15,825 nucleotides of DNA from a virus (Duplodnaviria > Heunggongvirae > Uroviricota > Caudoviricetes): the IMG/VR virus record IMGVR_UViG_2778261180_000007. The stretch is one strand, 5' to 3'. Positions 1,245 through 15,825 of this stretch are shown in pieces. Both the position numbers and the translations under genes were made by a program. Within the stretch, counting starts at the first letter, position 1, and every line of letters begins with the position of its first letter. The notes beneath the pieces were generated by a model. That model was not told where the DNA came from. It ran no database searches and saw only the letters and a program-made list of their open reading frames with translations.

Positions 1245-2444
1245 GTGGCAAGAACGACACGCCCCCTGACCAACACAGAAGTTCTGCGCGCTAAAGCGTT
1301 AGAAAAGGATCTAACGTTGCATGATGGCGATGGTCTTTTTCTGCTCGTTAAAACGAACGGTAAGAAGTTATGGCGTTTCCGTTATCAACGTCCAACAACA
1401 AAGCAGCGAACAATGATGGGGCTAGGTGCATTTCCCGCCCTCTCACTTGCTGACGCCCGGCGGTTAAGAGCGGATTACCTTTCCTTGCTAGCCAACGGAA
1501 TTGACCCGCAAATTCAAGCTGAGATTGTAGAGGAACAGCAACAAATTGCACTGGACAGTATTTTTTCAACAGTCGCCGCTAACTGGTTCCAGCTTAAAAG
1601 CAAAAGCGTTACCCCTGATTACGCGAAAGACATTTGGCGTTCACTAGAAAAAGATGTATTCCCTGCCATCGGTGAGATTCCAGTTCAGCAAATCAAAGCC
1701 CGAATGCTTGTTGAAGCCCTAGAGCCAATCAAAGCACGTGGGGCGCTAGAGACGGTACGTCGTCTGGTGCAGCGCATTAATGAGATAATGATTTATGCCG
1801 TAAACACAGGTCTGATTGATGCCAATCCAGCATCAGGTATTGGGATGGCCTTTGAGAAACCTAAAAAGCAAAACATGCTTACTCTCCGGCCAGAAGAATT
1901 ACCGAAGCTGATGCGTTCTTTAATTATGTCTAATCTATCCGTTCCGACACGTTGTCTTATTGAGTGGCAACTACTGACCCTTGTGCGCCCTTCTGAAGCC
2001 TCCGGTACAAGGTGGGCAGAGATCGATCTCGCAGCAAAGGTCTGGACGATTCCACCCGAACGGATGAAGGCCAAGCGTGAGCACATTGTTCCTCTATCTT
2101 CTCAGGCATTAGAAATTCTGGAAGTAATGAAACCAATCAGTGCTCATCGTGAACATGTTTTTCCCAGTAGAAATGACCCGAAACAGTCAATGAATAGCCA
2201 AACTGCTAATGCAGCACTCAAACGCATTGGTTATGGTGGGAAATTAGTTGCTCATGGGTTACGATCCATCGCAAGTACTGCACTCAATGAAGCCGGATTT
2301 AATCCTGATGTAATTGAAGCAGCTCTAGCACATAGTGATAAAAATGAAGTACGAAGAGCTTATAACCGCTCAACGTACCTTAATAAAAGAATAGAACTTA
2401 TGGCATGGTGGGGAAGGTTTGTTTATAAAACAAACCTTTTATAA
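1245..2444 (+). CDS. int: P4-family tyrosine integrase (site-specific recombinase)
   Basis: 399-aa ORF with a GTG start preceded by AAGGA. N-terminal arm-binding-like region (LHDGDGLFLLVKTNGKKLWRFRYQRP) and C-terminal catalytic signature (AHGLRS ... AHSDKNEVRRAYNRSTY) typical of P4-like integrases. Position directly 3' of a tmRNA gene. Confidence 0.9.
   Translation: MARTTRPLTNTEVLRAKALEKDLTLHDGDGLFLLVKTNGKKLWRFRYQRPTTKQRTMMGLGAFPALSLADARRLRADYLSLLANGIDPQIQAEIVEEQQQIALDSIFSTVAANWFQLKSKSVTPDYAKDIWRSLEKDVFPAIGEIPVQQIKARMLVEALEPIKARGALETVRRLVQRINEIMIYAVNTGLIDANPASGIGMAFEKPKKQNMLTLRPEELPKLMRSLIMSNLSVPTRCLIEWQLLTLVRPSEASGTRWAEIDLAAKVWTIPPERMKAKREHIVPLSSQALEILEVMKPISAHREHVFPSRNDPKQSMNSQTANAALKRIGYGGKLVAHGLRSIASTALNEAGFNPDVIEAALAHSDKNEVRRAYNRSTYLNKRIELMAWWGRFVYKTNLL
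2414..2444 (+). terminator. possible terminator hairpin inside the 3' end of int
   Basis: AAGGTTTG (2414-2421) pairs with CAAACCTT (2431-2438) and is followed by TTTTATAA. The int stop (2442-2444) directly abuts the stop of the convergent ATPase gene (2445-2447). Confidence 0.3.
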
Positions 2445-4142
2445 CTATACTTTAAAGAACTTATTTGTCGAAGATAACTCAAGGATCGAGTTACTCATCA
2501 TCATTTTCATGTCCGCATCTTCTGAAAACTTATCACTTAATATTGACACAATATATTGACCATTTATATTATTTGCTTCAAAAAATATATCTCTAATTTG
2601 ATTCACATCGACATCTTCAATGCTATCATGAATAACAAAAGTAGGTCTCTTTAATTTAATCTTATCCACAAACTTAATATAAGCCAAATCAAATGCAGTT
2701 ATTTCACCTTTCTTCTTGCCGCCATTACTGTTTGGTGTAACGCATGATATATCAAAATTACACTTACCTTTATCAACATCAAAGGAAAGATCAAAAATGT
2801 ATCTTTCCCCATATATTTCCTTTGTAAGATCACCAAAAAACTCATTGAAAATCTCGATGTTTTTTTCCAGACCTTGAACTGCTAACTCTATTTCTAAAAG
2901 TAATTTCTCTCGACTATCTTCAAGAGATTTTATAAGGGCATTTGTATCATTAATACGCGAAAGATTAGACTCTATGCTAGCAAGATTTTCACGTAATTCA
3001 GTAAGCTTATTAAATAATTGATTTATAGACTTTAATGTTTCAGGTTCTTTGATTGTTCTAAATAGGGATGATTCTTGTTCATGAAGATCATTGATTTTTT
3101 TATTTACAGTTTCTATTTCTTCTTTTTTCTTTAACAATTCAGATTCTAAAAAACTGATTTTATTCTTAATAATATCATTATGGAACAATACCATTTCTTC
3201 GTAAGTCCTTTTAAGTTCCCCATTAAAATAAATCCCCGCAGAATTATATATTTCCATTAAATCATTTTCTACAAGTTGTGTGATATTATTCTTCAAGGAC
3301 AAGATCGATTCTTCGATATTTCTTACTCGCATATTTAAGGAGGCATAGCTCAAAGAATAATCACTGATATTCTTCTGTATTTCTGAAAGCTTTTTTAAGC
3401 TTTCATCATGACTATCTTTAAAATCGAAGTTCTTAATATTTCTTTCCGCCTCTGCAATTTCTTTCTTCAGAGGCTTAATCATTTTTGCTAAAACAGTCTC
3501 TCTATTTGGATTCCTGTATGCGGCAAGATATGTCTTTTGTTTTTTTATCTCTTTGTTAAAATCACCTTTTTTCTTTATCAGAGGTAACCCATTGAACCCA
3601 AATAAAAACAAGTATAATAGATCATAGACATCAGGAGTCGTATTCCCATGTAAGAAATTAAGCGTTTTCTGCATTTTATCATTCGTGTTTCTAATAAATT
3701 TATGCGAAACATTCCTCAGTGATGGCTTATCTGTAGTTAACCCAAACACTGCTTGAGCTATAAATTCAGAATATTGTTTCTTATCTACTTCAACATCATT
3801 TAAAAAATATTTTGAATTTTTATCATCAATAGATATTATACGTGAAACAACTGCCTTTTTATTTTCTACCGTATTGAAATCCAATGAAAATTTCAAAACA
3901 TTATTATTAATTAACGATACAATTTCAGGTATATCTTTTCCAAACTCTGCATCATGATAAATATCATGACCTGATGACATAAATAAATAATCTAAAACAC
4001 GCGATAATGTGGATTTACCTACACTATTGCCGCTATCTTTGCCTGATGTTCTTTTATTTACAATTAGATTCAGACCGTCTTTAAACGTCACCTCTCTTAC
4101 AAGAGAGTCATTTTTTAAAATAATAAGTTTATTGAGCCTCAT
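2445..4142 (-). CDS. ABC-type (SMC/RecF-like) ATPase with long central coiled-coil; candidate defence-system ATPase
   Basis: 565-aa ORF. N-terminal strand-plus-P-loop layout (LNLIVNKRTSGKDSGNSVGKSTL, Walker A lysine K43). About 300 aa of heptad-like K/E/L/N-rich sequence. C-terminal signature-like SNGGKKKG followed by Walker-B-like TFVIHDSIEDVD. Start overlaps the upstream gene by 14 nt; GGTGGA lies upstream of the ATG. Confidence 0.75.
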   Translation of the reverse strand: MRLNKLIILKNDSLVREVTFKDGLNLIVNKRTSGKDSGNSVGKSTLSRVLDYLFMSSGHDIYHDAEFGKDIPEIVSLINNNVLKFSLDFNTVENKKAVVSRIISIDDKNSKYFLNDVEVDKKQYSEFIAQAVFGLTTDKPSLRNVSHKFIRNTNDKMQKTLNFLHGNTTPDVYDLLYLFLFGFNGLPLIKKKGDFNKEIKKQKTYLAAYRNPNRETVLAKMIKPLKKEIAEAERNIKNFDFKDSHDESLKKLSEIQKNISDYSLSYASLNMRVRNIEESILSLKNNITQLVENDLMEIYNSAGIYFNGELKRTYEEMVLFHNDIIKNKISFLESELLKKKEEIETVNKKINDLHEQESSLFRTIKEPETLKSINQLFNKLTELRENLASIESNLSRINDTNALIKSLEDSREKLLLEIELAVQGLEKNIEIFNEFFGDLTKEIYGERYIFDLSFDVDKGKCNFDISCVTPNSNGGKKKGEITAFDLAYIKFVDKIKLKRPTFVIHDSIEDVDVNQIRDIFFEANNINGQYIVSILSDKFSEDADMKMMMSNSILELSSTNKFFKV

Positions 4143-4362
4143 ATACTATTCCACCATTTCCATCTAACTCAATTGCGCCGATTATGAAAAGCCAATCTAA
4201 TGAGTAAAGAAAAAGATCAAACGATAACTCGAAGATAGAATTTACTAAATCATACAATCGAGATATTTCAATGACCATTGAATCATTACTTTGAAAGATC
4301 CCAAGCACTACACTTCCAATATATACAGGATTTGCTTTTGGATCCGTATCAATTGTAATCAT
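4129..4362 (-). CDS. hypothetical small protein (77 aa) with hydrophobic C-terminal half; operon member
   Basis: ORF preceded by GGAG with 8-nt spacing. Overlaps both neighbours by 14 nt, indicating coupled translation. Hydrophobic segment FDLFLYSLDWLFIIGAIEL. No family recognised. Confidence 0.5.
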   Translation of the reverse strand: MITIDTDPKANPVYIGSVVLGIFQSNDSMVIEISRLYDLVNSIFELSFDLFLYSLDWLFIIGAIELDGNGGIVYEAQ

Positions 4363-4897
4363 TTGGATTCTCCAGCACTATACATTCGATAATAGCATAG
4401 CTAACAATCATACGAATGCCATAATCAATATCTTCCTGTAAAAACTCTGAATCTAAATTAGAACACGAACTAACTGTTTCTTGAGCAGCTCTAATAACAT
4501 CATCTATAATATTATCCGAGTTTTTCCTTATGAGTTCAATGTTAAATGGTTTCTCATAAAGACCATATAATCCCAATGCAGTATTATAATAACCTCTAAA
4601 CTGTCTTTTCAATTTGACACTACCATTTAAAATTATAGCATCAAGTGTTTTTATGGATTCATCAACTAGCAGAGCATCTTCTTTATAAAGTTCAGCTACC
4701 CATCTGTTTCTTTTAAGATCATTGAATTCTATTTTAACATCAATATTTGATGCTATTCTGTTTAAGTTTTGCTCGCTACCAACTGAATTAGAAATAATTT
4801 CAATTAACTTACCAATAACACTGGCTCTTAACATTCTTGGCTGGTTGTTTATATGCACAGGACCAGTATTATTATTGAAATTAACACCAGAACCCAT
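4349..4897 (-). CDS. hypothetical protein (182 aa); operon member
   Basis: ORF preceded by GGGGG. Starts 3 nt after the stop of the upstream small gene. N-terminus carries an NNNTGPVHINN motif that repeats the C-terminus of the upstream protein. No catalytic motif recognised. Confidence 0.65.
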   Translation of the reverse strand: MGSGVNFNNNTGPVHINNQPRMLRASVIGKLIEIISNSVGSEQNLNRIASNIDVKIEFNDLKRNRWVAELYKEDALLVDESIKTLDAIILNGSVKLKRQFRGYYNTALGLYGLYEKPFNIELIRKNSDNIIDDVIRAAQETVSSCSNLDSEFLQEDIDYGIRMIVSYAIIECIVLENPNDYN

Positions 4898-4899
4898 AA

Positions 4900-5172
4900 T
4901 TACCCCCGATTATCAATATTCACAGGACCATTATTATCTTGAAAATATTGAGAACGCGCTCCTTGATTAATGAAGTTTCTATTAGTTGTAATTTTTACAA
5001 TCTGGGAATTAAGATCATTTATTGTAATGTTAAGTTGTTTTATCTCATTATCTTTCTTGGTTACTTGCATAGTCTGATATATTGCTATACATCCAGAGAT
5101 CACCCCAACAATATATCCAAAGGCACTTACATATTCGTTAGCAAGTAGTGATGCAATCATTTGGAGCTCCAT
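4900..5172 (-). CDS. small membrane-anchored protein (90 aa; 86 aa from the alternative ATG at 5160); first gene of the operon
   Basis: Predicted N-terminal transmembrane helix (IASLLANEYVSAFGYIVGVISGCIAIY) followed by a charged helical stretch. The second in-frame ATG at 5160 has a better-placed GGAG. C-terminus NNGPVNIDNRG. Confidence 0.55.
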   Translation of the reverse strand: MELQMIASLLANEYVSAFGYIVGVISGCIAIYQTMQVTKKDNEIKQLNITINDLNSQIVKITTNRNFINQGARSQYFQDNNGPVNIDNRG

Positions 5173-5429
5173 TTCAAGCTGAAAGATTTAAAGTCACAAC
5201 AATCTCATCCTATTAGGGTAGCTAGGATAGCAACTCATGAAGAGTAAATAAATAGGTATTAATCATTATCGTTTACATGATCTAATTCAACATAGATCCA
5301 CTCATGGCCTCTATACTTTCTCATAAACACAGTGTTTAGCTATGTGGGCTTAAGAGGTCTAAATTGATGTACTTACTTTATCAATTGATATAACCCCAAA
5401 TTATAATCGTTTCATATCATTGACGCGCA

Positions 5430-5448
5430 GTGCTTTCCCCGCCTCGCC
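5430..5448 (-). other. cos site: 19-nt cohesive-end sequence GGCGAGGCGGGGAAAGCAC (minus-strand reading)
   Basis: Plus-strand GTGCTTTCCCCGCCTCGCC is the exact reverse complement of the cohesive-end sequence I recall for P2 and P4. It lies between psu and the cargo operon, where cos sits in an integrated P4. Confidence 0.75.
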
Positions 5449-5612: not shown

Positions 5613-6185
5613 TTACACAGACTGACGTGATGCCAGTTGCGCACTTTTACGCGAAAAAATCATGTTCTGCGCAGGGGTGAATTTTTCACGGCTGTCATCC
5701 ACCGAAGCCGCGTCAGGTCTGAATCCAATGGCCGTTAAAATGTCGCTATCCTGTGCGGAATAATTAATTTTTTCACCCTTCGCAAGCCAGGACAGGAGGG
5801 CTTCACGCAGGGCATCTGTGGCACGCTGTATGGCACAGTTTCGGGCAATGGCCGTCAGCTCACTGTAGCCCATCAGCTCCGGTGCCAGTGCCGCCGCCAG
5901 TGCTGTGCCGTGCTGCTGCATAAAATCATTCAGCCGGTCGCGGATGCTGATGTGCTGAACGGCTTCATGCGAACGAATATAACGACCGGCGGCCTGATTC
6001 ACCTGCCATTTTCTGACTTCGATAATATTGCGTAATTCGTCCAGGCGACTGACGTTTCTGCCTTCTCCTGACAGAAGCCGCAGATATTCCTGTTCGGCCG
6101 CAGCCAGCTCATTTTTGCGTTGCAGCCATGCTGCTTTGTTATTCTGACAGGTGTCAAAGGCCTGCTGTAAGGCTGTGCTTTCCAT
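5613..6185 (-). CDS. psu: Psu (polarity suppression / capsid decoration protein), P4-like
   Basis: 190-aa ORF, the size of P4 Psu, last gene of the sid-delta-psu array next to cos. Sequence MESTALQQAFDTCQNN... recognised as Psu-like. Confidence 0.85.
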   Translation of the reverse strand: MESTALQQAFDTCQNNKAAWLQRKNELAAAEQEYLRLLSGEGRNVSRLDELRNIIEVRKWQVNQAAGRYIRSHEAVQHISIRDRLNDFMQQHGTALAAALAPELMGYSELTAIARNCAIQRATDALREALLSWLAKGEKINYSAQDSDILTAIGFRPDAASVDDSREKFTPAQNMIFSRKSAQLASRQSV

Positions 6186-8309: not shown

Positions 8310-8896
8310 TGATGCCCGCTCTGCAAAAACTCCCTTTTTCTGGCTTGCCTTTTTCCGGCATTTGCGGATATAGTTTTTCCGTTGCCGCAAAATCGGCAGC
8401 CGGGCGTGAGAACCCGTGTAACTCGAAGGCGACATATGACGCGCCATGCGTCTTTTTTTGTGTCGCAATCAACGCCACAGAGCGCCAGATTATGGTGTGG
8501 CGTGTGGTTTGCCGTGCAGGTATGATCCTGTTCGCAATCGCATGTTATGCCACTGAGTCAATGGTAGCTCAGGCGGGGCAGCCTCCGGGCTGGCCGGTAT
8601 TCTTCGAGGCCGGTATTCTCACCCCCGTCTGGGCTATCGCCATCGAGCGTGAGAACTCCGGCGATAGCAGTTATTTGCTACTCGAAGGAGGCTGCCTTAT
8701 GGCTACAACCCTTACCCCCTCACACCCTGAATTTGTCTTTGTGTTTGCGGCTGTCCGTCGCGCAGACCGTCATCCCCGTATCTGTATGCTTCGCACCGTC
8801 GCCGGTGATGAACGCAGTGCCCGCCGTTCCCTTGTCCGTGACTATGTGCTCTCCCTTGCTGCCCGTCTGCCGGTGGTGGAGGTGTCCCGTGCGTAA
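8306..8896 (+). CDS. eta: eta-like long ORF (194-196 aa, three consecutive ATGs) enclosing kil and spanning the immunity region
   Basis: Open frame from an ATGATGATG start that overlaps the vis stop (ATGA). Matches my recollection of P4 eta: about 197 codons, three candidate start codons, kil nested in the same frame at the 3' end. Coding status itself is uncertain. Confidence 0.4.
8345..8374 (+). promoter_or_regulatory. candidate early promoter (PLE-like)
   Basis: TTGCCT (8345-8350), 18-bp spacer, TATAGT (8369-8374); alternative -10 GATATA with 16-bp spacer. Lies just upstream of seqA. Confidence 0.3.
8406..8687 (+). promoter_or_regulatory. P4-type RNA immunity region: seqA (8406-8428), seqB within a candidate CI RNA (8602-8622), seqC (8649-8687)
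   Basis: seqA GTGAGAA...CTCGAAG and seqC GTGAGAA...CTCGAAG are each complementary to seqB CTTCGAG...TTCTCAC (reverse complement GTGAGAAtaccggcCTCGAAG). seqC runs into the GGAGG Shine-Dalgarno of kil. Confidence 0.45.
8699..8896 (+). CDS. kil: Kil-like small protein (65 aa)
   Basis: ATG at 8699 preceded by GGAGG that overlaps seqC. 65 codons, the size I recall for P4 Kil. Shares frame and stop with eta. Confidence 0.5.
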
Positions 8897-10094: not shown

Positions 10095-12428
10095 ATGAAA
10101 ATGAACGTAACCGCCACCGTCAGCCATGCACTCGGCCACTGGCCGCGTATTCTCCCGGCGCTGGGGATTCAGGTGCTGAAAAACCGTCATCAGCCCTGTC
10201 CGGTCTGTGGCGGGAGTGACCGCTTCCGTTTTGATGACAGGGAGGGGCGCGGCACCTGGTACTGCAATCAGTGTGGTGCCGGTGACGGCCTGAAACTGGT
10301 TGAAAAGGTGTTTGGTGTTTCCCCGTCCGACGCGGCCGCAAAGGTGGCTGCCGTGACCGGCAGCCTGCCCCCGGCTGACCCGGCAGTGACGGCCGCCGCC
10401 GGTGCTGAAACAGACGCTGCCCGGAAGAACGCCGCCGCACTGGCACAAACCCTGATGGCAAAAACCCGTCCCGGAACCGGTAACGCCTACCTGACCCGCA
10501 AGGGCTTTCCCGGCCGGGAATGCCGGATGCTGACCGGCACACACAGAGCCGGTGGCGTGAGCTGGCGCGCCGGTGACCTTGTGGTGCCACTGTATGACGA
10601 CAGCGGCGAACTGGTTAACCTTCAGTTAATCAGTGCTGACGGCCGTAAGCGCACCCTGAAAGGCGGACAGGTCAGGGGCACCTGTCACATCCTTGAAGGA
10701 CAGAATCAGGCCGGAAAACGTCTGTGGATAGCGGAGGGATACGCGACCGCACTTACCGTGCATCACCTGACCGGTGAAACGGTGATGGTGGCGCTTTCTT
10801 CCGTGAATCTCCTTTCTCTGGCCAGCCTTGCCCGGCAGAAGCATCCGGCCTGTCAGATTGTCCTTGCTGCTGACCGTGACCTCAGCGGTGACGGCCAGAA
10901 AAAAGCCGCCGCAGCCGCAGATGCGTGTGAAGGTGTTGTTGCCCTGCCGCCGGTCTTCGGTGACTGGAATGATGCCTTCACGCAGTACGGCGGGGAAGCC
11001 ACCCGTAAGGCCATTTATGATGCCATCCGGCCACCGGCTGAAAGCCCGTTCGACACCATGAGCGAAGCGGAGTTTTCCGCCATGAGTACCAGCGAAAAGG
11101 CCATGCGTATCTATGAGCATTACGGCGAGGCGCTCGCGGTTGATGCCAACGGCCAGCTTCTGTCCCGTTATGAAAATGGTGTCTGGAAGGTGCTGCCACC
11201 ACAGGACTTTGCCCGGGATGTGGCCGGGCTGTTTCAGCGGCTGCGCGCGCCGTTCTCCTCCGGGAAGGTGGCCTCCGTGGTGGACACCCTGAAGCTGATT
11301 ATTCCGCAGCAGGAAGCCCCCTCCCGCCGCCTGATTGGCTTTCGTAACGGCGTGCTCGACACGCAGAACGGCACGTTCCACCCGCACAGTCCGTCACACT
11401 GGATGCGCACCCTGTGCGATGTGGATTTCACCCCACCGGTGGAAGGGGAAACGCTGGAAACCCACGCCCCCGCGTTCTGGCGCTGGCTTGACCGTGCCGC
11501 CGGTGGCCGTGCGGAAAAACGCGACGTGATTCTGGCCGCACTGTTTATGGTGCTGGCAAACCGCTATGACTGGCAGCTCTTTCTGGAGGTGACCGGTCCC
11601 GGCGGAAGCGGCAAAAGTATCATGGCCGAAATAGCCACCCTGCTGGCCGGGGAGGATAACGCCACGTCGGCCACCATTGAGACGCTGGAATCCCCGCGTG
11701 AACGTGCCGCGTTAACTGGCTTCTCACTGATACGCCTGCCGGACCAGGAAAAATGGAGCGGCGACGGAGCCGGACTCAAGGCCATCACCGGCGGCGATGC
11801 AGTGTCCGTTGACCCGAAATACCGGGATGCGTACTCCACGCACATCCCGGCGGTGATTCTGGCCGTGAACAATAACCCGATGCGCTTCACCGACCGCAGC
11901 GGCGGCGTGTCACGCCGGCGGGTGATTATTCACTTCCCGGAACAGATAGCCCCGCAGGAGCGCGACCCGCAACTTAAGGACAAAATCACCCGCGAGCTGG
12001 CGGTCATCGTGCGTCACCTGATGCAGAAGTTCAGCGACCCGATGCTCGCCCGGTCACTGCTTCAGTCCCAGCAGAACTCAGACGAGGCACTGAACATCAA
12101 ACGGGATGCCGACCCGACGTTTGATTTTATCGGCTATCTGGAAACCCTGCCGCAGACCAGCGGCATGTATATGGGGAACGCCAGTATCATCCCGCGTAAC
12201 TACCGTAAATACCTCTATCACGCCTATCTGGCCTACATGGAGGCAAACGGCTACCGGAATGTACTCAGTCTGAAAATGTTCGGGCTGGGGCTGCCGGTGA
12301 TGCTGAAGGAATACGGGCTGAATTACGAGAAGCGCCATACCAAACAGGGGATACAGACCAACCTGACGCTGAAAGAGGAAAGCTACGGCGACTGGCTGCC
12401 AAAATGTGACGACCCTGCAACAACCTGA
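10095..12428 (+). CDS. alpha: Alpha: P4-type primase-helicase replication protein
   Basis: 777 aa, the size of P4 alpha. AGGAG Shine-Dalgarno. N-terminal zinc motif CPVCGGSDRFRFDD...CNQCG. Toprim-like EGYATAL and AADRD. Helicase Walker A VTGPGGSGKS. Iteron arrays lie on both sides. Confidence 0.9.
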   Translation: MKMNVTATVSHALGHWPRILPALGIQVLKNRHQPCPVCGGSDRFRFDDREGRGTWYCNQCGAGDGLKLVEKVFGVSPSDAAAKVAAVTGSLPPADPAVTAAAGAETDAARKNAAALAQTLMAKTRPGTGNAYLTRKGFPGRECRMLTGTHRAGGVSWRAGDLVVPLYDDSGELVNLQLISADGRKRTLKGGQVRGTCHILEGQNQAGKRLWIAEGYATALTVHHLTGETVMVALSSVNLLSLASLARQKHPACQIVLAADRDLSGDGQKKAAAAADACEGVVALPPVFGDWNDAFTQYGGEATRKAIYDAIRPPAESPFDTMSEAEFSAMSTSEKAMRIYEHYGEALAVDANGQLLSRYENGVWKVLPPQDFARDVAGLFQRLRAPFSSGKVASVVDTLKLIIPQQEAPSRRLIGFRNGVLDTQNGTFHPHSPSHWMRTLCDVDFTPPVEGETLETHAPAFWRWLDRAAGGRAEKRDVILAALFMVLANRYDWQLFLEVTGPGGSGKSIMAEIATLLAGEDNATSATIETLESPRERAALTGFSLIRLPDQEKWSGDGAGLKAITGGDAVSVDPKYRDAYSTHIPAVILAVNNNPMRFTDRSGGVSRRRVIIHFPEQIAPQERDPQLKDKITRELAVIVRHLMQKFSDPMLARSLLQSQQNSDEALNIKRDADPTFDFIGYLETLPQTSGMYMGNASIIPRNYRKYLYHAYLAYMEANGYRNVLSLKMFGLGLPVMLKEYGLNYEKRHTKQGIQTNLTLKEESYGDWLPKCDDPATT

Positions 12429-12440
12429 CCCTCATGACTC

Positions 12441-12800
12441 ATCTGACCGGCATCTGCCGGTCTTTTTTCATCCCTGAATCCCCCGAAGGTGAACAATCCA
12501 CTGTTCACCCTTCACCGTATATTCACCCGTTATCACACTGAAATTAAAAGAGAAAAATGAAAGGTGAACAGTGTGAACAATCAAATCAAAAAAAACTTTT
12601 TTCTCCCTGTGTGATTTCAGTACGGGGGATTAATCACCGGTATGAGTCACACCGGCAGAATGCCGGAGGTGAAGAATCGAATGTTCACCCTTCACCCATT
12701 ATTCACCACCTATCAAACTGAAATAAAAGGAGAAAAAAGAAAGATGAACAGTGTGAACAGTTCTTCCGAAAAAAAATTTTTTTCCTGTACGATATAGCAT
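12441..12800. repeat. two tandem ~180-bp imperfect direct repeats with TGTTCACC/GGTGAACA iterons and A8/T6-7 tracts; cis-replication-region-like
   Basis: Unit 1: GGTGAACA 12488-12495, TGTTCACC 12502-12509, degenerate copies 12510-12528, GGTGAACA 12563-12570, GTGAACA 12573-12579, A8cT6 12588-12602. Unit 2 repeats this 180 bp later (TGTTCACC 12682-12689, A8T7 12769-12783). Each unit begins with a CCGGCA...TGCCGG hairpin. Confidence 0.65.
12445..12468 (+). terminator. intrinsic terminator of the alpha (left) operon
   Basis: GACCGGCA, loop TC, TGCCGGTC, then TTTTTT, 17 nt after the alpha stop. Confidence 0.55.
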
Positions 12801-12847
12801 CAATCCAAGTAAAAATGCGCTTTCATTTCACATTAACTTACAGCCAT

Positions 12848-12868
12848 TGGTATACGATTAGGTATACA
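12848..12868. repeat. third copy of the 21-bp TTGGTATACGnTTAGGTATAC motif (candidate arm-type site)
   Basis: TTGGTATACGATTAGGTATAC, 54 bp before the attR-like sequence. Confidence 0.4.
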
Positions 12869-12921
12869 CACAAAAACTGAATTAAACAAAATCATTAAAA
12901 ATCAAAGCAATACAATATTTA

Positions 12922-12943
12922 TTCAAACTCCGCCAGCCCACCA
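12922..12943. other. attR-like degenerate copy of the ssrA 3' end (TTCAAACTCCGCCAGCCCACCA)
   Basis: Aligns to the attL core TTCAACTCCCGCCAGCTCCACCA with three single-base indels. Lies immediately beyond the last P4-like feature and before the chromosomal autotransporter gene. Confidence 0.35.
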
Positions 12944-13070
12944 ATCATGATTGGACGGTATAAGGACAACACCAATAAAAACAGGAAGTTAGCAGTCTCA
13001 GCAGGACACCGACCAGACGGTGAAGAGACATAAAAGGATACGCAAAGGAGCCGCGGCTCCTGGTGACATG

Positions 13071-13103: not shown

Positions 13104-13430
13104 TCAGAACGACCAGTTCACACCAGCTACCCCGTTCCACGGGGATTCCACACCGGCACCATGGCTATACCCCACCCCAAGATGCCCGCTTAACGTACTG
13201 CTGAATGAGGCTTTAATACCTGCCTGGTATATTCCACGTCTGCCCGACAAATCATTGACAAAATTACCGTCACTATTCACTTTCACCCGATTATCATCGA
13301 CAAATTCTTTGCGCACAGCCGCCTTCAGGCAGGGTTCAATTTCCATACCGTTCCCCAGACGCATGTTGTAACTCAGCGTTGCACCCAGTTCACGATATAA
13401 ACTGCGGGTATCGACTGATTTCGATTCCAT
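13104..13430 (-). CDS. autotransporter C-terminal beta-barrel segment (108 aa), in a different frame from the upstream passenger ORF
   Basis: Ends ...GVAGVNWSF with a terminal aromatic residue, typical of outer-membrane beta-barrel C-termini. Separated from the passenger ORF by a stop and a frame change at 13431-13461. Confidence 0.5.
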   Translation of the reverse strand: MESKSVDTRSLYRELGATLSYNMRLGNGMEIEPCLKAAVRKEFVDDNRVKVNSDGNFVNDLSGRRGIYQAGIKASFSSTLSGHLGVGYSHGAGVESPWNGVAGVNWSF

Positions 13431-13458
13431 GCCATTGGATAAATGATATTCAGGGTTA

Positions 13459-15825
13459 TCAGCGGTGAACCCCCGTTAACGATGCATACGGCGTCAGGTT
13501 CCAGTTACCATCGGTAAATCGCATCCCGGTTTCAATGTGACCGCCCAGCCCGTTGCTGCGATAACTGCCGTTGGCGGCTCCACCGCTGCCAACCGTGGAG
13601 TCGCGAGCTTCGGTACCTGCTAATACCAATAAATTACCGCCATTTTCCAGCAACATATTGGTCGCTAAATTGCCGGAAATGGAAAAAGTGCCGTACTGGT
13701 GAGTACCGCTGATTTCAATACCGTTAGCCGTGCTCGTCTGGAGAGCGGCACCGCTGTTCTGGACGATATCTGTCGCTTTGCCATTATCGTTAACTGTCAG
13801 CGTACCGCCTTCATTGATCTTTGTTTTTATTGCCTCTCCGTTAGCTGAAACTGTTTGTATTCCGCCGTCGTTAATCGTTGTCTCATTCGCCACCCCCTCG
13901 ACGATTTGTTCGCCGCCGGTGAGCGTCGTGCCTGTCGCAGTGGCTTTTGTTTTGACGATCTCCCGTCCGCCCGTATTGACCTGTGTTTTGTCAGAAGAGG
14001 TGTCTGACTCCATGGTTAACACGCCGCCATTTGCCAGCAGGATATTGTTCGCCGCACCCTGCTCGATGCTGAACGCGACGCCATCCGCGCGTGTTCCTGT
14101 GACCCGCGTCGCCCTGGTGGTTGCAACCAAAGCGTCCTGGCTACTCTGCTGTATCCCCGTTGCGCTGCCTTTCTCCCGCACATCGAGTGTGCCGCCGTCA
14201 TTAAGCACCGAGTTTTCAGCCAGACCGCCCTCATTAACTACCTGTGAACACCCATTAATAATGGAACCTTCCGCTGTCCCGTTTGCCATAATTTGTTGTA
14301 GGCCAGAGACGATATCGGTATTGATTGCCTTACCATAATTCTGAACGGTTTGCGTGCCACCATTGATGTGTGTTTTCTCTGTTGACCCACCATCAACAAT
14401 TTGTTCACCACTTTCGATATTTGCCTCAGTGGCTAATCCATATACCGTTTGCTTGCCACCTTTGATATTTGCTTTATCAGAAGTGGCACTGGCATATATT
14501 GTTTGGGTGCCAGCACTATTGAGTACAGTGCCAACATCTTTTCCATAAACATCCATTTTGCCGTTGGCATTAATAATCGTATCAACTGCCCGGGAACCAG
14601 TGACGACTGTTAATGAGCCAGCGTTTTCCAGCACTACATTTTTAGCTTCTGAATTCCTGATGTAGAAAGCATCACCATAACTGTTGGTTCCTTCGATAAG
14701 GGTTCCGGAAGTTGTGGAAGCAATTAATGCGCCGCCGGATTGTTGCTCAACATGCTTAGCCTCACCACCGTCCTGAACCTCCAGAACGCCACCATTATTA
14801 AGTCTGGTGGTATCTGTTTTAGCCTCCTTCTGGGCAATCAGCTTACCGCCAGCATCAACGGTAGTATTTTTCGCCGAGGTTTTAGCCACTACCGTCAGTT
14901 CGCCGGTATTTTCCAGCACAACATAATTAGCCTCCCCTCCGGTAATAGTGAAGTGAGAGAGCTTGTTGTATCCTTCAATATCAGTCCCTGCGCCCGTGTT
15001 GGCAACTAAAGCACTGCCCGTCTCCTGGTTAACCCCATGTGCAATACCACCGGTATAGACAATCAGCGAGCCTCCGGCGCTAATATTGCTGCCAGTTGCC
15101 GTACCATCTTTCTCAACAACCTGCCGGCTCCCGGAGGATATAATTGTCGTGTCAGCTTTCCCGCCGCTCTTGATATTTTGCGTTCCGCCGTTGATATTGG
15201 TACCCGTGGCAATACCATGATTATTAATATTCTGTGTACCACCATTGATTATGGTATTGGTCGCGTTTCCGGTAACATCCATTACCCCGCCGTTATCTAT
15301 TCGGGTCGCATCAGCTTTAGCATTCGTTAAAACTGACATTGTTCCTTTATCTTTAATAATCGTCTTGTTTGCCGAACCATATGCGTTTATGTCTAAATGA
15401 CCACCGTTTTCCAGCAACACATTGTCTGCCACGTGATTGTGGATGGAGAATGCACCTTCACTATTCGTACCGCTCACCGTCGTACCGTTAGTGTTTGTTT
15501 TTAAAATTGCACCATCGTGCTGGGTAACATTTGTTGCCGTACCACCACTAACATCAAGCACGCCACCGGAATAAACTTCAATAACATCCGAGGAGCTGGT
15601 GTAATCAACAATTTGCGTACCACCAGAATAGATCTGAGTATTTTTTGCCGTTGACTTATTATTCAGAGACTGAGTTCCACCTTCAATCGTCGTGTCCAGC
15701 GCATGGCTTTCATATACTCTTTGCTCACCGCCATTTTTAATGGTGGTTGTTCCTACTGTGCTCTGTTCAACAGTAACCGGCTCATTTAAACCGTCTGGTC
15801 TGTTTCCTCCGGCTCTACAAAAATA
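13459..15825 (-). CDS. AIDA-I/Ag43-type autotransporter adhesin, passenger region (5'-partial; continues beyond the window end)
   Basis: Reading frame is open from the window edge (15825) down to the stop at 13459-13461. Dozens of G/T/N-rich ~19-aa beta-helix repeats (e.g. INGGTQNI, TIINGGTQ, VLENAGSLTVV). The ORF track's GTG at 15561 is not the true start. Confidence 0.8.
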   Translation of the reverse strand, partial: YFCRAGGNRPDGLNEPVTVEQSTVGTTTIKNGGEQRVYESHALDTTIEGGTQSLNNKSTAKNTQIYSGGTQIVDYTSSSDVIEVYSGGVLDVSGGTATNVTQHDGAILKTNTNGTTVSGTNSEGAFSIHNHVADNVLLENGGHLDINAYGSANKTIIKDKGTMSVLTNAKADATRIDNGGVMDVTGNATNTIINGGTQNINNHGIATGTNINGGTQNIKSGGKADTTIISSGSRQVVEKDGTATGSNISAGGSLIVYTGGIAHGVNQETGSALVANTGAGTDIEGYNKLSHFTITGGEANYVVLENTGELTVVAKTSAKNTTVDAGGKLIAQKEAKTDTTRLNNGGVLEVQDGGEAKHVEQQSGGALIASTTSGTLIEGTNSYGDAFYIRNSEAKNVVLENAGSLTVVTGSRAVDTIINANGKMDVYGKDVGTVLNSAGTQTIYASATSDKANIKGGKQTVYGLATEANIESGEQIVDGGSTEKTHINGGTQTVQNYGKAINTDIVSGLQQIMANGTAEGSIINGCSQVVNEGGLAENSVLNDGGTLDVREKGSATGIQQSSQDALVATTRATRVTGTRADGVAFSIEQGAANNILLANGGVLTMESDTSSDKTQVNTGGREIVKTKATATGTTLTGGEQIVEGVANETTINDGGIQTVSANGEAIKTKINEGGTLTVNDNGKATDIVQNSGAALQTSTANGIEISGTHQYGTFSISGNLATNMLLENGGNLLVLAGTEARDSTVGSGGAANGSYRSNGLGGHIETGMRFTDGNWNLTPYASLTGVHR

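Follow-up and report, generated by a model that had tools for sequence, protein, structure and literature searches.

Introduction

Lamassu systems occur in ~10–15% of prokaryotic genomes (review; Haudiquet et al. 2025), and the superfamily includes the ABC-three component (ABC-3C) systems (review). In a lactococcal Lamassu, Pfam domains of the ABC-3C C-terminal domain (CTD) and middle component (MC) types are found on LmuA and LmuC. Related systems have been experimentally validated in defence, and Lamassu/DdmABC relatives also act against plasmids. In the solved Lamassu complexes, LmuB2-LmuC sequesters monomeric LmuA via its CTD. Upon sensing of DNA ends or of phage replication origins, LmuA is freed and tetramerises via the CTD, whereupon the effector becomes active (Haudiquet et al. 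2025; Li et al. 2025). The solved members all kill by an enzyme fused to the LmuA coupling domain. Lamassu clades also vary in their A and C parts, type I being without LmuC and the "effector-less" clade O, with >100 sequences from >40 species, having a CTD-only A protein next to an intact LmuB and LmuC (Haudiquet et al. 2025). Here we describe a four-gene cassette (positions 2445–5172, minus strand) in a stretch of 15,825 nucleotides, hereafter the window, recorded as IMG/VR IMGVR_UViG_2778261180_000007. The window is a segment of an E. coli chromosome in which a P4-like satellite is inserted at ssrA, and the cassette is cargo of this satellite. By sequence and predicted fold, the cassette is a member of the Lamassu/ABC-3C family of the short type, and the data indicate that the branch taken as effector-less may instead use a split effector, consisting of a tiny putative membrane protein and a matching pair of motifs.

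The architecture of this proposed effector has a parallel in amyloid signalling. In the Bab/Agp system of E. coli, Bab (109 aa) starts with a hydrophobic helix and ends in a BASS11 motif, and the corresponding motif at the N-terminus of its neighbour activates it; this architecture runs an abortive-infection (Abi) response which has been experimentally validated in E. coli (Ibarlosa et al. 2024). Amyloid-signalling motifs (BASS) are ~20–25 aa long, rich in N/Q/G/V/I and poor in K/P/L. We found no paper linking Lamassu or ABC-3C with amyloid signalling.

Results and discussion

A satellite cassette of the short Lamassu/ABC-3C type

The initial annotation of the window had described four tightly coupled genes that form an operon around a coiled-coil ABC ATPase, and our analysis agrees with this layout. 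Four minus-strand open reading frames (ORFs) lie at 4900–5172, 4349–4897, 4129–4362 and 2445–4142 (90, 182, 77 and 565 aa, respectively), exactly where they had been placed. The two 14-nt overlaps between the last three genes were found as described, while the remaining junction is a 2-nt spacer (stop codon at 4900–4902, TT, ATG at 4897) instead of the 3 nt that had been given. The reported AT-richness was also reproduced, with a GC content of 0.28–0.33 over 2250–5250 (~0.30 in the cassette) compared with 0.46–0.63 in the flanks. Two other statements had to be revised: that the small proteins could not be placed in any family, and that the gene set does not match the composition of known defence systems. 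The 77-aa protein belongs to Pfam MC6, above the gathering score, the 182-aa protein is of the CTD10 type, and the set is that of ABC-3C/short Lamassu.

The 565-aa product (2445–4142, minus strand) is a DUF2326-family Rad50/SMC-like ABC ATPase, regarded as LmuB-like from Pfam, PADLOC and fold matches. Pfam DUF2326, a C-terminal domain, matches it at 1.3e-17, above the cut-off, and the PADLOC models PDC-M68B and LmuB match at 1.2e-45 and, over the full length, 4.3e-16. The conserved motifs are Walker A, GNSVGKST (aa 38–45), whose lysine is K43 as the initial annotation had stated, the signature PNSxGGKKKGE (aa 470–480), Walker B, FVIHDS (aa 502–507), and the D-loop IEDVD. An antiparallel coiled coil is inserted at ~aa 186–444, so that the ATPase has the Walker A, signature, Walker B and inserted coiled coil that characterise LmuB; it has no CxxC zinc hook. 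The Walker B sequence fits hhhhD[Q/S/T/E], the type of short LmuB (Haudiquet et al. 2025), and thus supports membership of the short type. Alignments with homologues at 50% identity are almost gapless, with 565 columns in one case (A4) and 571 in another (A6).

Structural comparison, which had been proposed as a check, pointed in the same direction. The AlphaFold2 (AF2) model of the ATPase, built from 44 sequences, has a predicted local distance difference test score of 80.5 and shows a bipartite ABC head with a long antiparallel coiled coil. When this model was compared with the PDB by Foldseek, YydD (9a6c_A) came first with an E value of 1.7e-18, followed by Smc/Rad50/cohesin heads and then by the Lamassu LmuB chains 9uxh_F, 9hqu_A and 9ux7_A at ~1e-9. 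For the 182-aa protein, the best PDB matches of the AF2 model were YydB and two solved LmuA chains, which were top-ranked and weak.

The 77-aa protein (4129–4362, minus strand) overlaps each neighbouring gene by 14 nt and is matched by Pfam MC6 at 4.4e-13, above the cut-off; its RefSeq name is likewise "ABC-three component system middle component 6". In all loci examined the MC6 gene stands between the CTD10 and ATPase genes, which is the position of the LmuC/MC component. Rousset et al. 2022 had assigned a winged helix-turn-helix (wHTH, DUF2582) to this protein by HHpred.

The 182-aa protein (4349–4897, minus strand) is a CTD10-only, LmuA-like protein that begins with a short N-terminal motif. 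Its own match to the ABC-3C family Pfam CTD10 is weak (E 0.0042); the family matches 14 of the 29 members of the protein family, the best at 9e-7, and distant relatives found by the family profile are HNH+CTD10 or SMEK_N+CTD10 proteins with CTD10 above the cut-off. In these features it corresponds to the effector component of Lamassu with its conserved C-terminal coupling domain. No enzymatic N-terminal domain is present on this polypeptide, whose 182 aa include only a 23-aa disordered N-terminus. NCBIfam and PHROGs returned nothing useful for the three small proteins. Searching with the profile of this protein family among 1.84 billion representatives yielded 270 clusters at 50% identity. Stand-alone CTD10 proteins (170–235 aa) make up 128 of the 135 full-length clusters listed, most of them with an N/G-rich start, and the other 7 of the 135 carry HNH or SMEK N-domains and are without the N/G-rich N-terminal motif.

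The cassette was compared with several described systems. Short (type II) Lamassu, such as DdmABC/Vc-Cap4 of V. cholerae and LmuACB of Salmonella (Haudiquet et al. 2025; Li et al. 2025), has the A-C-B gene order in common with it. Further likenesses are a SMC/Rad50-like ATPase of ~565–600 aa with a short coiled coil and a hhhhD[S/T/Q/E] Walker B, a small middle protein, a helical C-terminal coupling/oligomerisation domain on the A protein, and a location on mobile elements or in defence islands. Unlike those systems, the window A protein has no enzymatic N-terminal domain and only a 20-aa motif in its place, there is an obligatory, separately encoded fourth protein of the membrane type, and the sequences are too distant for profile matches to the solved chains. 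The solved LmuC is about twice the size of the MC6 protein, judged from residue numbers up to 117. Within ABC-3C, the closest branch is DUF2326/MC6/CTD10, whose Pfam families match three of the four cassette proteins. The cassette probably corresponds to clade O of Haudiquet et al. 2025, an assignment drawn from a comparison of the two descriptions: the CTD-only A protein and the intact LmuB and LmuC are as in the cassette, and the size and species range of the clade fit the spread of the cassette family. A transmembrane (TM) partner or shared motif is not mentioned in that paper.

YydB and YydD of B. subtilis, the best structural matches of the CTD10 protein and the ATPase, are both chains of PDB 9a6c, an in-cell cross-linking-based model. 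YydB has 481 aa with an N-terminal domain, whereas the A component of the window is CTD-only and is accompanied by a separate TM protein. This match implies that yydB-yydD constitute a system of the ABC-3C/Lamassu kind, with the ATPase and the effector component placed in one model from cross-linking data. The PADLOC entry PDC-M68, a candidate two-gene cassette proposed by guilt-by-embedding (Payne et al. 2024), is represented in the cassette by only one of its two proteins, the model PDC-M68B hitting the ATPase.

The system had been called undescribed in the initial annotation, a label that is not supported, since it corresponds to system #12 of the P4-hotspot catalogue (Rousset et al. 2022, Table S1B), listed there as "DUF2582 | SMC_N" with 108 occurrences and with comments recording 1 TM, a wHTH for protein 3 and a strong homology of protein 4 to SMC. 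The printed 182-aa protein is identical to that of the window, and the TM protein (G/R) and MC6 (R/G) differ by one residue each. The printed ATPase (MIRINKLYSEPYSF...), in contrast, is only 21% identical to the window ATPase. It is another DUF2326-family protein, whose closest relatives are plasmid-borne in Rhizobium, Agrobacterium and Sphingomonas. This mismatch could reflect sensor swapping in draft genomes or a mix-up in the table. The possibility that two ATPase types stand behind identical small genes in E. coli is not supported by the complete genomes, where 28 of 28 carriers have the window-type ATPase.

A small putative membrane protein shares a motif with the CTD10 protein

The fourth gene (4900–5172, minus strand) encodes the proposed effector. 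Its longest ORF has 90 aa, and the most likely start, judged from the sequence, is the ATG at 5160, giving 86 aa, because a GGAG lies 7 nt upstream, PGAP makes the same choice and this start fits the alignment of homologues. The small protein begins with a hydrophobic helix, followed by a variable K/N/E-rich middle and a near-invariant C-terminus; it has no Pfam match. The predicted transmembrane helix YVSAFGYIVGVISGCIAIY (aa 10–28 in 86-aa numbering; 5077–5133, minus strand) comes from Kyte-Doolittle hydropathy. The maximum over 19 residues (KD19) is 1.73 in the window protein, mostly 1.7–2.8 within its own family and 1.76–2.5 in distant families, and every intact small protein has a hydrophobic segment with KD19 of at least 1.7. 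Rousset et al. 2022 also annotated one TM in this protein.

The gene is a constant part of the unit. It is present in all ~20 species-level loci, 1–5 nt from the CTD10 start, and upstream of CTD10 in 8 of 8 distant stand-alone CTD10 families examined, with MC6 and ATPase genes following. Homologues and relatives of the small protein have 80–120 aa. The sole exception to the hydrophobic segment is a small ORF of 63 aa in Siccibacter colletis (L010:3807–3998), which is N-terminally truncated and lacks the hydrophobic helix. Its three partner genes appear intact, and either a pseudogene or an error in sequencing could account for it. In one distant family (L033:628–900), two hydrophobic segments are present, and the N/G-rich motif lies between them and not at the C-terminus.

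The C-terminal motif of the small protein, QGARSQYFQDNNGPVNIDNRG (4903–4965, minus strand), is the best conserved part of the protein. Its consensus is QG-KSQYFQ[DE]N-G[PS]VNID[NM]RG, with the invariant columns S74, Q75, Y76, F77, Q78, N80, G82, I86, D87 and R89. A matching motif, MGSGVNFNNNTGPVHINNQPR, opens the CTD10 protein (aa 1–21; 4835–4897, minus strand): this N-terminus, GV-F--N-GPV-I-N, is homologous to the motif of the small protein, has low AF2 confidence and is disordered. The same pairing recurs elsewhere. In 8 divergent stand-alone families, the small protein has an N/G-rich motif similar to the start of the CTD10 protein encoded next to it, for example VKNTGSNSGVIAGNV with VKIENSGDNSGVIANTV. 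A permutation test over nine divergent families gave a score of 378 for cognate motif pairs against 266 ± 24 for permuted pairs (z 4.75, p ~1e-5).

In addition, the motifs have a marked composition, being enriched in N (5.2x), G (2.2x), V (1.5x) and I (1.5x) and depleted in L (0.07x), P (0.25x) and K (0.37x); Q is not enriched (0.67x). Since this bias matches that of amyloid-signalling motifs, we count the resemblance in favour of the split-effector reading set out below. As in amyloid pairs, homologous motifs of this length and composition stand at the C-terminus of the putative executioner and at the N-terminus of its neighbour, and they are more alike within than between pairs across the nine families (not among close relatives).

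We also considered that the repeat might be a DNA-level effect, namely gene conversion, an assembly artefact or ribosome-hopping sites. Among identical motif residues, 54% use the same codon within a locus and 48% across loci, and some loci share none. Codons are thus shared no more within loci than between them, which indicates selection on the peptide and not on the DNA and rules out these explanations.

A natural variant joins the two proteins. P0003 (L026:538–1284) is an in-frame fusion of the TM protein and CTD10 joined exactly at the motif, which arose when 65 nt between the stretches coding for the two motifs were cleanly deleted, restoring the frame. It is known from one metagenome contig of 1.4 kb, and its allele is ~90% identical. 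This fusion shows that the small protein holds the position of an LmuA effector domain.

Distribution and conservation of the four-gene unit

A survey of co-occurrence, which the initial annotation had called for, found that the four genes travel as a unit. The full cassette is present in 28 of 5,426 complete E. coli genomes, with the same ATPase in all. Every readable locus, ~20 at species level, has the order small protein, CTD10, MC6, ATPase with lengths and overlaps that are nearly the same, and the unit extends from Enterobacterales to Vibrio, Crenothrix, Methylophilaceae and Undibacterium at 40–50% identity. Since order, lengths and overlaps are kept across these taxa, the arrangement is not due to chance. 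Almost every homologue of the 182-aa protein, whether from Enterobacterales, Vibrio, Shewanella, Pseudomonas, Crenothrix or Undibacterium, has exactly this length, and nearly all ATPase homologues have 565 aa (a few 563–582). The 182-, 77- and 565-aa products are rigid in length, with almost no indels down to 40–50% identity across Gamma- and Betaproteobacteria, and this rigidity in the alignments suggests that they may form a tightly packed complex.

The neighbours of the homologues include type I restriction-modification (R-M) systems, integrases, a NERD-UvrD helicase and ArdA. A distant four-gene version (L028:3128–6003) lies in a P2-like prophage beside gpD, gpU and tail genes, and is cargo of a helper phage and not of a satellite. 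These surroundings keep a defence role, as proposed in the initial annotation, the leading hypothesis. Plasmid and phage collections contained no homologues of the cassette, and IMG/VR only 4 contigs with it.

Proposed mechanism and alternative explanations

Taken together, we consider it fairly probable that the cassette is a short-Lamassu/ABC-3C abortive-infection system, carried as satellite cargo, in which the effector is split over two genes. Following the solved Lamassu complexes, two copies of the DUF2326 ATPase together with MC6 would keep the CTD10 protein monomeric and sequestered. The ATPase heads would sense phage DNA ends or replication intermediates, upon which the CTD10 protein would be freed and would oligomerise. 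At its N-terminus, where a canonical LmuA has a nuclease, lipase or similar domain, the sequence anatomy points to only a 20-aa N/G-rich strand-turn-strand motif. Once clustered, these motifs may bind the matching C-terminal motifs of the 86-aa membrane protein, a co-translated product with a single TM pass, and perhaps act as a template for them. The resulting clustering of TM helices would permeabilise the inner membrane, leading to cell death before phage release. In this scheme, a contact by prion-like amyloid-type templating, by which a Lamassu sensor would signal to a separate membrane executioner, is a tentative proposal that we put at somewhat below even chances; the N-terminal motifs of the CTD10 oligomers would then act as nuclei that convert the C-terminal motifs of the small protein.

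This proposal is built on the likeness, by architecture, to Bab/Agp and to fungal HET-S/NWD2 (Ibarlosa et al. 2024; Dyrka et al. 2020). In all of them, a small protein combines an N-terminal hydrophobic helix with a C-terminal N/G-rich motif of ~20–25 aa, a homologous motif opens the adjacent gene product, the match is pair-specific, and the genes lie in defence islands or prophages. The small protein has 86 aa compared with 109 aa in Bab, and the motif partner in the window differs from those of the known pairs in being an LmuA-type CTD on a SMC-like ATPase instead of an NLR or TPR-PIN protein.

The same motif pair could belong to a system of the same Lamassu type in which the two proteins are held constitutively as a heterodimer by a non-amyloid beta-zipper between their motifs. 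The small protein would then be an always-attached split effector, or an anchor that positions the sensor complex at the inner membrane, for instance where it can encounter injected DNA. Such a stable strand-strand contact would explain the motif pairing and co-variation equally well, the P0003 fusion suggests that a permanent link is tolerated, and each protein has one motif copy of ~20 aa, with Pro in the window's family, while BASS motifs are typically ~25 aa. We nevertheless find it rather unlikely, as the composition and positions of the motifs match validated amyloid-signalling pairs, a permanent tether would hinder the effector release and oligomerisation known from Lamassu activation, and a pure anchor would leave the system without an effector. 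Decay offers a further explanation, in which the cassette would be a degenerate Lamassu that has lost its effector domain, with the small ORF and shared motif as leftovers of a decaying or rearranged gene. The truncated small ORF at locus L010 fits this picture. It is hardly credible, however, for four proteins of near-constant length with almost no indels at 40–50% identity across Proteobacteria classes, for a motif that is the most conserved part of the small protein, for a family of 270 clusters, or for synonymous sites that have freely diverged while the peptide was kept.

Several points weigh against the split-effector reading. Sequence and profile searches of the ATPase against solved structures returned only coiled-coil noise, and the PADLOC comparison proposed in the initial annotation, which placed the ATPase, matched no model to any of the three small proteins. 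Membrane insertion is predicted from hydropathy, where the window protein has a KD19 near the lower end of the observed range. Locus-by-locus co-variation of the motifs within the window's own family is not significant (p 0.2 and 0.09), and the signal between families could partly come from independent fissions or shared descent instead of physical pairing. Our search turned up no experiment with this subtype: its peptides do not appear among the systems tested by Rousset et al. 2022 (Table S2), nor does the cassette DNA occur in any of the 19 constructs from the 2026 P4/P2 study. In the latter, an LmuBC + SMEK variant of Lamassu from a P4 hotspot, without a known effector, did not protect against any of 28 phages. 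This last result, and the fact that no phenotype is known for the subtype, would also fit a role other than phage defence, such as an addiction or stabilisation module of the satellite or a device against helper P2 phage or plasmids; the cassette is borne by a mobile element, and Lamassu/DdmABC relatives are also anti-plasmid. We regard such a role as improbable, because homologues also occur outside P4, amid R-M and other defence genes of unrelated islands in chromosomes and within a P2-like prophage, and are missing from plasmid and phage collections, and because P4 hotspot cargo has a high rate of validated defence.

As far as we checked, a split membrane effector with paired motifs is new, while the founding ABC-3C paper (Krishnan et al. 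2020) may already describe stand-alone CTDs with TM partners. The split-effector reading would explain why PADLOC and DefenseFinder-style rules rate the abundant P4 cargo #12 as incomplete or unknown. If it is true, SMC-like immunity and amyloid signalling become linked, and two 20-aa motifs with one TM helix provide a concrete mutable target for membrane cell death driven by an SMC sensor. If the amyloid contact is also true, amyloid-signalling immunity in bacteria would have a second widespread class in "effector-less" Lamassu, with at least 128 clusters at 50% identity, a class unrelated to NLRs and common in Proteobacteria. Other pairs can be searched by a simple rule, namely that a short motif at the C-terminus of one gene product recurs at the N-terminus of the product encoded next.

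Genomic context of the cassette

The view of the initial annotation that the cassette is variable cargo on a P4 backbone was borne out. Sequence identity to the P4 reference (sequence of Rousset et al. 2022, Table S2A) stops just past GCGCG, at ~5424. The cargo therefore extends from 2445 to ~5423, including a 250-nt AT-rich leader (5173–5423, minus strand) that is delimited by the GC profile and the P4 identity boundary. The cos 19-mer (5430–5448) lies beside the end of P4 identity. Lying as variable cargo in a P4-type backbone, with cos/psu on one side and int on the other, the cassette has the arrangement of the psu-int hotspot, and Rousset et al. 2022 include it in their catalogue of that hotspot. 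The promoter of the cassette is presumably located in the leader; a consensus scan of 5173–5423 found no convincing minus-strand promoter.

The backbone consists of the P4-type integrase gene int (1245–2444, plus strand), Psu (5613–6185), delta- and sid-like genes between Psu and the C4/isrK region, the C4/isrK immunity RNAs (8368–8644) and the P4 alpha-type primase-helicase (10095–12428). The host genes smpB (1–483) and tmRNA (698–1060) precede it. The RefSeq annotation of the identical locus in strain 5132 concurs with this context. The int stop codon (plus strand, ending at 2444) abuts the ATPase stop codon (minus strand, ending at 2445), so that the two genes converge with 0 intergenic bases, and no terminator-like site was seen at this convergence.

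To the right of the satellite, the window contains an AIDA/Ag43-type autotransporter adhesin on the minus strand (13104–15561). The gene looks disrupted, with eight AIDA repeats in a passenger ORF of 700 aa and part of the beta-barrel domain on its own in a fragment of 108 aa. Strain 5132, whose locus is otherwise identical, has glaH-lhgO-gabD in place of the autotransporter. Between the alpha gene and the autotransporter fragment there is a further AT-rich stretch (12500–13000, GC 0.36), within which the right attachment site of the satellite is presumably located.

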